The translations under genes and the position numbers were made by a program. From contig MU057640.1 of assembly GCA_013265495.1 (NCBI GenBank), forward strand, positions 2,133,405 through 2,197,404: 64,000 nucleotides of DNA, written 5' to 3'. The notes under the pieces were generated by a model. The model was not told the DNA's origin. It searched no databases and saw only the letters and a list, made by a program, of their open reading frames with translations. Each line of letters begins with the position of its first letter. The first letter of the stretch is position 1. The stretch is from Vicugna vicugna. Taxonomy: Eukaryota. Positions 42,300 to 43,460 of this stretch are shown in pieces.

Positions 42300-43460
42300 G
42301 CTTCCCACATTTGGACCCAGCTCCGCTGGTGAGCAGTAGTGGCAGCGGTCGCCGCCAGGCCGGCTGGGTCCCCACCTGTCTGTCCAGTTATTCATAGGTG
42401 AGATTTACGAGGATGCGGGAGAGGAATGCGGGATGACAACGAGTTTTGGAAGGTATAATCCTAAAAGTCACACTTTTCCCAAAGCGCCTCCCTCCCAGGT
42501 TCTCCTTCCCAGCGCCGCACGGTCCCAGCGGGGGAGCGTGCGTCGCGGACGCGCCGCGGTGGTCGGCTGTGACCCGACGATCTCTATGGCTTCCACCGTC
42601 TTGCTCTGCTCCTCCGACAGGCGACCGGGGTTGGGGGCCCCGGCTGGGGAGGCCCCGCGCGAGTCCCGCTCCCGATCCCCGGCAGCTGGCAGCAGCCCCT
42701 TCAGCTCCAACAATGCCCGGTGGTATTTGCCGATGGCTTCGCGGAATTTCTTGTCCTTGTAGCACTGCGCCCCTTGGCTCTTGAACTCGTGCGCGCGCCG
42801 GATGAACTCGGCGGGCTCGGCCGCCGCCCCAGCCTGGCCCCGCGCCGGGGTCCCTCCGCCGCCGCCCGGGACGCTCAGCGGCGGCTGCGGCCGCTGCGCC
42901 TCGCCGGCCGCGGGCGGGCTCGGGTTCCCCTTGGCCCCGGCCGCCGAGCCCTTCCTCTCCATTCGTCCGCCGCCCGGCGCCCCGCGCGCGCCGCGATCCG
43001 CCTGCCCGCCGCCGCCGCGCCCTCCTGGGTTTAAAAGCGGCGGGCGCCGGCCCCGCGCCTGGCAAGCTCGGCCGCGGCCGTGACACCCCGCGGCGGTCTG
43101 TCGTCCCGCACTCCCATTCTCCTCGCCAGCTGCGGGAGGCTGCCCTCCCCTCCTCCTCCTTCTCCTCCTCCTCCTCGGATTGCCTTCCCCTCCTTCCCTC
43201 CCTCCCTCCCTCCCTCTCCCACTCTCGCGCCGCCCGCCCTCCTCCTCGCCCTCCTCCCCTCCCGCAACCTGCGGGCGGTGGCGACCTGGCCTTCGCGCGC
43301 TCCGGGGCTAGCGATACGGGAGCCCGAGGGCCCGATGGGGATGGCGGTGATTGTCGCTGACCCGGAAGAAGCTTGGCTCGCCTGAAGGAGGGGAGGATTA
43401 ATGACAAAGACGGGCCCGGTCTTTCCCATTCAATCCAGCCCTCGGAGACGTGCCTAGTCT
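42300..43460. promoter_or_regulatory. CpG island covering the TTC9 promoter, 5' UTR and exon 1
   Basis: Very high GC and CpG density, GC-box-like runs and a (CCT)n/(CCCT)n tract at about 43143-43260, against a CpG-depleted background. Confidence 0.9.
42557..42962 (-). CDS. TTC9: TTC9 coding exon 1 (N-terminus and first TPR helices); 3' boundary is inferred and the last ~21 nt plus donor are anomalous
   Basis: ATG at 42962-42960 opens [21 protein letters not shown]...[34 protein letters not shown]...[15 protein letters not shown], matching recalled mammalian TTC9 through residue 128 (nt 42579). The end at 42557 assumes a 222-aa protein (669 - 183 - 80 = 406 nt). No GT donor is present there. 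Confidence 0.9.

Follow-up and report, generated by a model that had tools for sequence, protein, structure and literature searches.

A loss of about 110 nt at the end of TTC9A exon 1 in a camelid draft assembly is probably a local assembly error

We found that the TTC9A gene of a camelid draft assembly lacks the end of its first exon together with the splice donor. The window, by which we mean the whole 64-kb stretch of DNA that we analysed (G000:C571:2133405-2197404), belongs to a 2.03-Gb draft of 12,405 pieces and carries the three TTC9A exons on its minus strand. The lesion itself is confirmed. Comparison with other camelid and mammalian sequences indicates that the loss of about 110 nt is probably a local error of assembly or gap closing. 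The lesion is thus most likely not a real feature of camelid TTC9A.

The sequence-only reading of this DNA had described an exon 1 that tracks TTC9 up to one base and then turns into a foreign tail, and the alignments bear this out. The 164-aa open reading frame (ORF) on the minus strand (42962..42468) begins with the ATG at 42962 and is closed by a stop at 42470-42468. Among the matches listed (n=120, from 664 homologues), the best are mammalian TTC9A proteins. In the alignment with the camel protein P0121, the similarity stops exactly past the residues IEI, after the G at 42578, with which the lost Asp129 codon would begin. Up to this point the exon 1 protein is collinear with TTC9A and residues 1-128 are identical to P0121 (128/128). 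The G at 42578 is followed in the exon frame by 36 unrelated-looking residues and the stop. At 42556-42555, 22 nt past IEI, where the phase-1 donor is expected, the minus strand reads CG and not GT, as had been noted before. A six-frame translation of the 64-kb window contains neither DCYN nor YNSL. The window copy of TTC9A therefore does not have the DCYNSLA end of exon 1 with its phase-1 GT donor.

The rest of the gene was said to be free of decay, and we found it so. Exon 2 retains its phase-1 acceptor AG (20886-20885) and its donor GT (20701-20700). It opens with CC TGC, corresponding to (A)CLLQ, and so still begins at the expected Ala. The codon split between exons 2 and 3 reads Asp197, and exon 3 ends with the stop TAA at 18606-18604. 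Together, exons 2 and 3 are identical to residues 137-222 of P0121 and code for the rest of TPR2 and for TPR3. All 214 remaining codons of the window gene are identical to those residues of P0121 that they represent (128 in exon 1, 60 internal codons plus the split Asp197 in exon 2, and 25 in exon 3). The two genes share the three-exon layout and the phase-1 introns. The window TTC9A departs from P0121 in that DCYNSLA (codons 129-135) and the first Ala136 base are missing, together with the donor and some 90 nt of intron 1. The coordinates of these features are collected in Table 1.

Table 1. Features of the TTC9A gene and of the lesion in the window
Feature	Position	Strand	Basis
TTC9A exon 1, kept coding part, codons 1-128 (Met to IEI)	42579..42962	-	128/128 identical to P0121
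Deletion junction, about 102-114 nt missing	42577..42578	-	11 read-through ORFs
Intron 1 sequence in the exon frame (36 residues and stop)	42468..42577	-	Aligned as orthologous to mammalian read-through tails
Two phase-1 GTs, weak candidate cryptic donors	42519..42550	-	Consensus count
GC-rich promoter and first-exon island holding the lesion	42500..43350		GC 0.66-0.86 in 100-nt windows
TTC9A exon 2, 183 nt	20702..20884	-	60/60 internal codons identical to P0121 residues 137-196
TTC9A exon 3, coding part	18604..18683	-	Identical to P0121 residues 198-222

The lost residues form a conserved motif, and their absence from the window is more than a chance difference. A homologue search with the window ORF returned the 664 homologues. 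DCYNSLA was retained in 151 of 154 fetched homologues, from mammals to amphibians, which agrees with the earlier description of mammalian TTC9 as running IEI-DCYNSLA-ACLLQ and implies strong constraint. The three exceptions are a lungfish protein (ECYNGLTA), a diverging lemming model and the garbled dromedary model P0076, discussed below. Since TPR2 of TTC9A is placed at aa 128-161 by Cao et al. 2008 (PMC2538545), the seven lost residues would open the first helix of this repeat. A Pfam search of P0121 gave matches to TPR_1 (30.5 bits, cut-off 27.8) and TPR_2 (30.4 bits, cut-off 27) over residues 165-197. The same search gave no significant match on the 164-aa ORF of the window.

The assembly contains a single TTC9A locus, on the scaffold of the window, separate from TTC9B and TTC9C. 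Two paralogue loci, TTC9B-like and TTC9C-like, lie elsewhere in the same assembly (G000:C6739 and G000:C9287) and are 38-73% identical to it (38-46% in exon 1). Both have a homologous exon 1 end followed by a phase-1 G/GT, the slash marking the splice site. They read ECYDSLT-G/GTACGA and DCYNNLA-G/GTAAGA, which gives the pattern [DE]CY[DN][SN]L[AT]. These ends show the ancestral structure of the family, which the two paralogues keep intact and the window TTC9A does not.

The foreign-looking tail was explained by proteins that read through the exon 1 donor. Of the 154 fetched proteins, 88 are spliced and read DCYNSLA-ACLLQ, while 37 read DCYNSLA-[GC]E.... Many of the nameless proteins from run assemblies are ORFs that cross the exon 1 donor and carry on into intron 1, their contigs being genomic or unspliced. 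Such ORFs have about 30 Pro/Gly/Ala/Arg-rich residues past DCYNSLA and then the sequence of the window tail. The read-through ORF P0006 contains ...PPTPAARPRRPFPFWDRAA..., the same as in the window tail, and the final 25 residues of P0150 match this tail as well. In other mammals, the distance from IEI to the ..DRAA anchor is 56-60 residues in 11 read-through ORFs, compared to 22 in the window. The 11 ORFs are thus longer by 34-38 residues, or 102-114 nt. Of this length, 22 nt belong to exon 1 (codons 129-135 and the first Ala136 base); the remainder takes in the GT donor and some 80-92 nt of intron 1. The window tail corresponds to orthologous intron sequence that other mammals have some 90 nt downstream of the donor.

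By this alignment the tail is orthologous intron 1, neither novel nor scrambled nor new coding sequence. The lesion is therefore best described as a clean deletion of about 102-114 nt, and its junction carries no N run or gap mark. The sequence-only reading had offered two options, a real recent replacement and a consensus locally in error or scrambled. A wrong consensus is favoured here, in the form of a clean deletion, while replacement and scrambling were rejected, since the tail runs collinear with read-through ORFs of intron 1 in other mammals.

The lesion lies in DNA that is difficult to sequence. The GC content at 42500-42699, around the lesion, is 0.71-0.78, and it reaches 0.86 in the exon; the gene is without any other decay. 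The pattern IEIDCYNSLA had no match when both strands of the entire assembly were scanned, and 42300-42900 occurs there only once. No other contig therefore harbours the missing piece. Downstream of TTC9A, some 4.4 kb past its stop codon on the strand of the gene, lies the single N run of the window (14106-14174, 69 N), which identifies the sequence that carries the window as a gapped scaffold. A (TG)n microsatellite of 24.5 copies (43486-43534) is located just upstream of the promoter island. We also observed a 398-aa ORF in another frame of the minus strand (42388-43584), which spans the whole CpG island and exon 1. This ORF is most simply explained by the scarcity of stop codons in very GC-rich DNA, and it may be the reason why gene callers on such contigs sometimes omit the TTC9 frame.

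The records of other camelids carry the segment. P0121, from the cluster at 90% identity around the best named match, is the 222-aa tetratricopeptide repeat protein 9A of Camelus dromedarius / C. ferus (XP_032338187.1 and two more RefSeq accessions). Its three accessions lie on three chromosome-size contigs, the longest of 96 Mb, and bear no low-quality flag. P0121 reads IEI-DCYNSLA-ACLLQ. It has the camelid-specific residues PLSVP and AGDRE, a combination that we saw in no other fetched mammal. The C. bactrianus model P0122 also reads IEI-DCYNSLA-ACLLQ. The same holds for P0126, a spliced 222-aa protein with the camelid-specific residues that was recovered from 6 Logan contigs and shares an A24 variant with P0122. 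P0126 must derive from RNA.

These records (P0121, P0122 and P0126) show, at the level of proteins and annotation, that TTC9A is intact in the same or sister species. The presence of DCYNSLA in other individuals had been named beforehand as the observation that would point to an artefact, and at the protein level it is now at hand in three to four annotated camelid records and in the spliced P0126. Loss of function or a cryptic-donor isoform, both raised before, finds no support as a camelid-wide state, as P0121, P0122 and P0126 all carry the motif. On these sequences, camelid-wide loss of TTC9A is essentially excluded for Camelus.

Two of the camelid models have peculiarities of their own. 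P0076, a GenBank record of 128 aa for TTC9A of Camelus dromedarius, corresponds to about 42580-42962 of the window. It switches repeatedly between the frames of exon 1 and stops before IEI. This looks like the result of many small indel errors in its assembly, in the same GC-rich exon. The TTC9A locus is hence error-prone in camelid assemblies. The C. bactrianus P0122 (RefSeq, 379 aa) has a 157-residue N-terminal extension that begins with MGKTGPVF. In the window, the ATG of this extension (43429) lies in a frame different from that of the TTC9 ATG and meets a stop at 43031 (region 42963-43429, minus strand). P0122 merges both frames near the CCCT/CCT repeats, at 43144-43262 of the window. The extension is probably due to a difference or error in repeat length and to a model over-extended through the 5' UTR.

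Taken together, we consider it probable that the end of exon 1 was misassembled. The gene would then be the ordinary, intact three-exon TTC9A of a camelid of the Camelus type, as judged by protein identity, from which about 110 nt of GC-rich sequence were dropped without a gap mark when this part of the CpG island was assembled or its gap closed. In the animal, exon 1 would end with ...IEI-DCYNSLA-G/GT and would be joined by splicing to exon 2, whose phase-1 acceptor is intact. GC-related dropouts tend to leave gaps, so the clean junction counts against an assembly error. Misassembly is nevertheless the best explanation because all 214 other codons are identical to P0121, the splice sites of exons 2 and 3 are intact, the draft is fragmented and the site GC-rich, the camel records are intact, P0076 is garbled in the same exon, and errors of this kind are described by Kim et al. 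2022. We also counted in its favour that the paralogues in the same assembly keep their exon 1 ends and phase-1 GT donors.

According to Kim et al. 2022 (Genome Biol 23:204, PMC9516821), short-read assemblies lack sequence and carry false indels most often in GC-rich 5' UTRs and first exons, and such errors can disrupt splice junctions. The window resembles the cases described there in having a GC-rich first exon, a fragmented draft, a broken splice junction and a conserved gene that is intact in better assemblies. The cases in that report are mostly gaps or small indels from birds, platypus and fish, whereas here about 110 nt are missing from a camelid gene without a gap mark.

A real germline deletion of about 110 nt, present as a private or low-frequency allele in the hetero- or homozygous state in the sequenced animal, is the main alternative, though an unlikely one. 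The clean junction without a gap mark suits it, deletions of such sizes arise naturally in GC-rich DNA, and the complete lack of decay elsewhere fits a very recent event as well as an artefact. However, by general reasoning a deletion that takes out a conserved donor should occur far less often than a local error of a draft. The retention of DCYNSLA in nearly all homologues speaks for strong constraint, and every other camelid record that covers the site is intact.

If the deletion were germline, exon 1 would have lost its donor, and retention of intron 1 would lead to a 164-aa product that keeps TPR1 and lacks TPR2 and TPR3. Alternatively, the GT at 42550 or 42520 would be used, and 9 or 19 foreign residues would replace the first seven of TPR2. 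These are the only two phase-1 GTs between 42578 and the stop. We estimated donor strength as the number of matches at the 9 positions of CAG/GTAAGT. The GT at 42550-42549 (context CGC/GTCCGC) scored 4/9 and the GT at 42520-42519 (ACC/GTGCGG) 3/9, compared to 8/9 for the exon 2 donor by the same count. Both had rightly been called weak, apart from a trivial slip in the context quoted for the first (GGC for the actual CGC). Such an allele would be a natural loss-of-function or hypomorphic variant of TTC9A and a large-animal counterpart of the Ttc9a knockout mouse, for which oestrogen-related anxiety phenotypes in females are described (PMC5116628, PMC9320210). It would make a modest finding.

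We looked for the deleted form in protein and contig collections. The 164-aa ORF of the window was not found by exact look-up in a collection of 15 billion proteins. A search with residues 105-164 against proteins of 90-287 aa gave 62 candidates and 42 matches, none of which had the IEIVGSQ junction; the best identity was 49% at a coverage of at least 82%. Among proteins of 30-89 aa the search returned no candidate. The intact genomic read-through ORF of a camelid was likewise missing (0 of 150 proteins), and the missing deleted form therefore carries little weight.

Among related loci in JGI metagenome contigs, none of the three had TTC9A exon 1. One of these contigs (L008) holds an exon 3 look-alike, 93% identical over residues 195-222, which points to mammalian host DNA in the metagenome. 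A degenerate pattern for a 12-residue peptide had no match in genome_contigs or in viral_contigs. With 154 words sampled from 41800-43300, 24 sequencing runs were listed as sharing them, 14 with at least half of the words, by word match only. The top shares of 0.94-0.96 extend over two organism labels and six studies; they are likewise word matches only and not evidence on the deletion.

It is very improbable that TTC9A was remodelled or lost as a fixed change in the lineage of the window, be it a species or a population. Such a change would account for a window without the segment, but the 128 of 128 exon 1 codons, camelid-specific residues included, equal those of the intact C. dromedarius / C. 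ferus protein, and the sequences of C. bactrianus and of camelid RNA are likewise intact. Had the loss been fixed, zero substitutions in 214 codons and perfect splice sites at exons 2 and 3 would be surprising. Replacement or scrambling of the exon 1 3' end by non-homologous sequence, through a consensus scramble or an insertion, can practically be dismissed. In its favour stands no more than the first impression of a tail unrelated to TTC9, and this tail aligns in order with the mammalian intron 1 read-through ORFs as far as a shared stop context.

Should the lesion be an artefact, which we consider probable, it serves only as a caution: automated scans for gene loss or selection that use this draft would wrongly report that camels have lost or remodelled TTC9A. 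As the case illustrates, about 100 nt can drop out of a GC-rich first exon in a draft assembly without leaving a gap mark.
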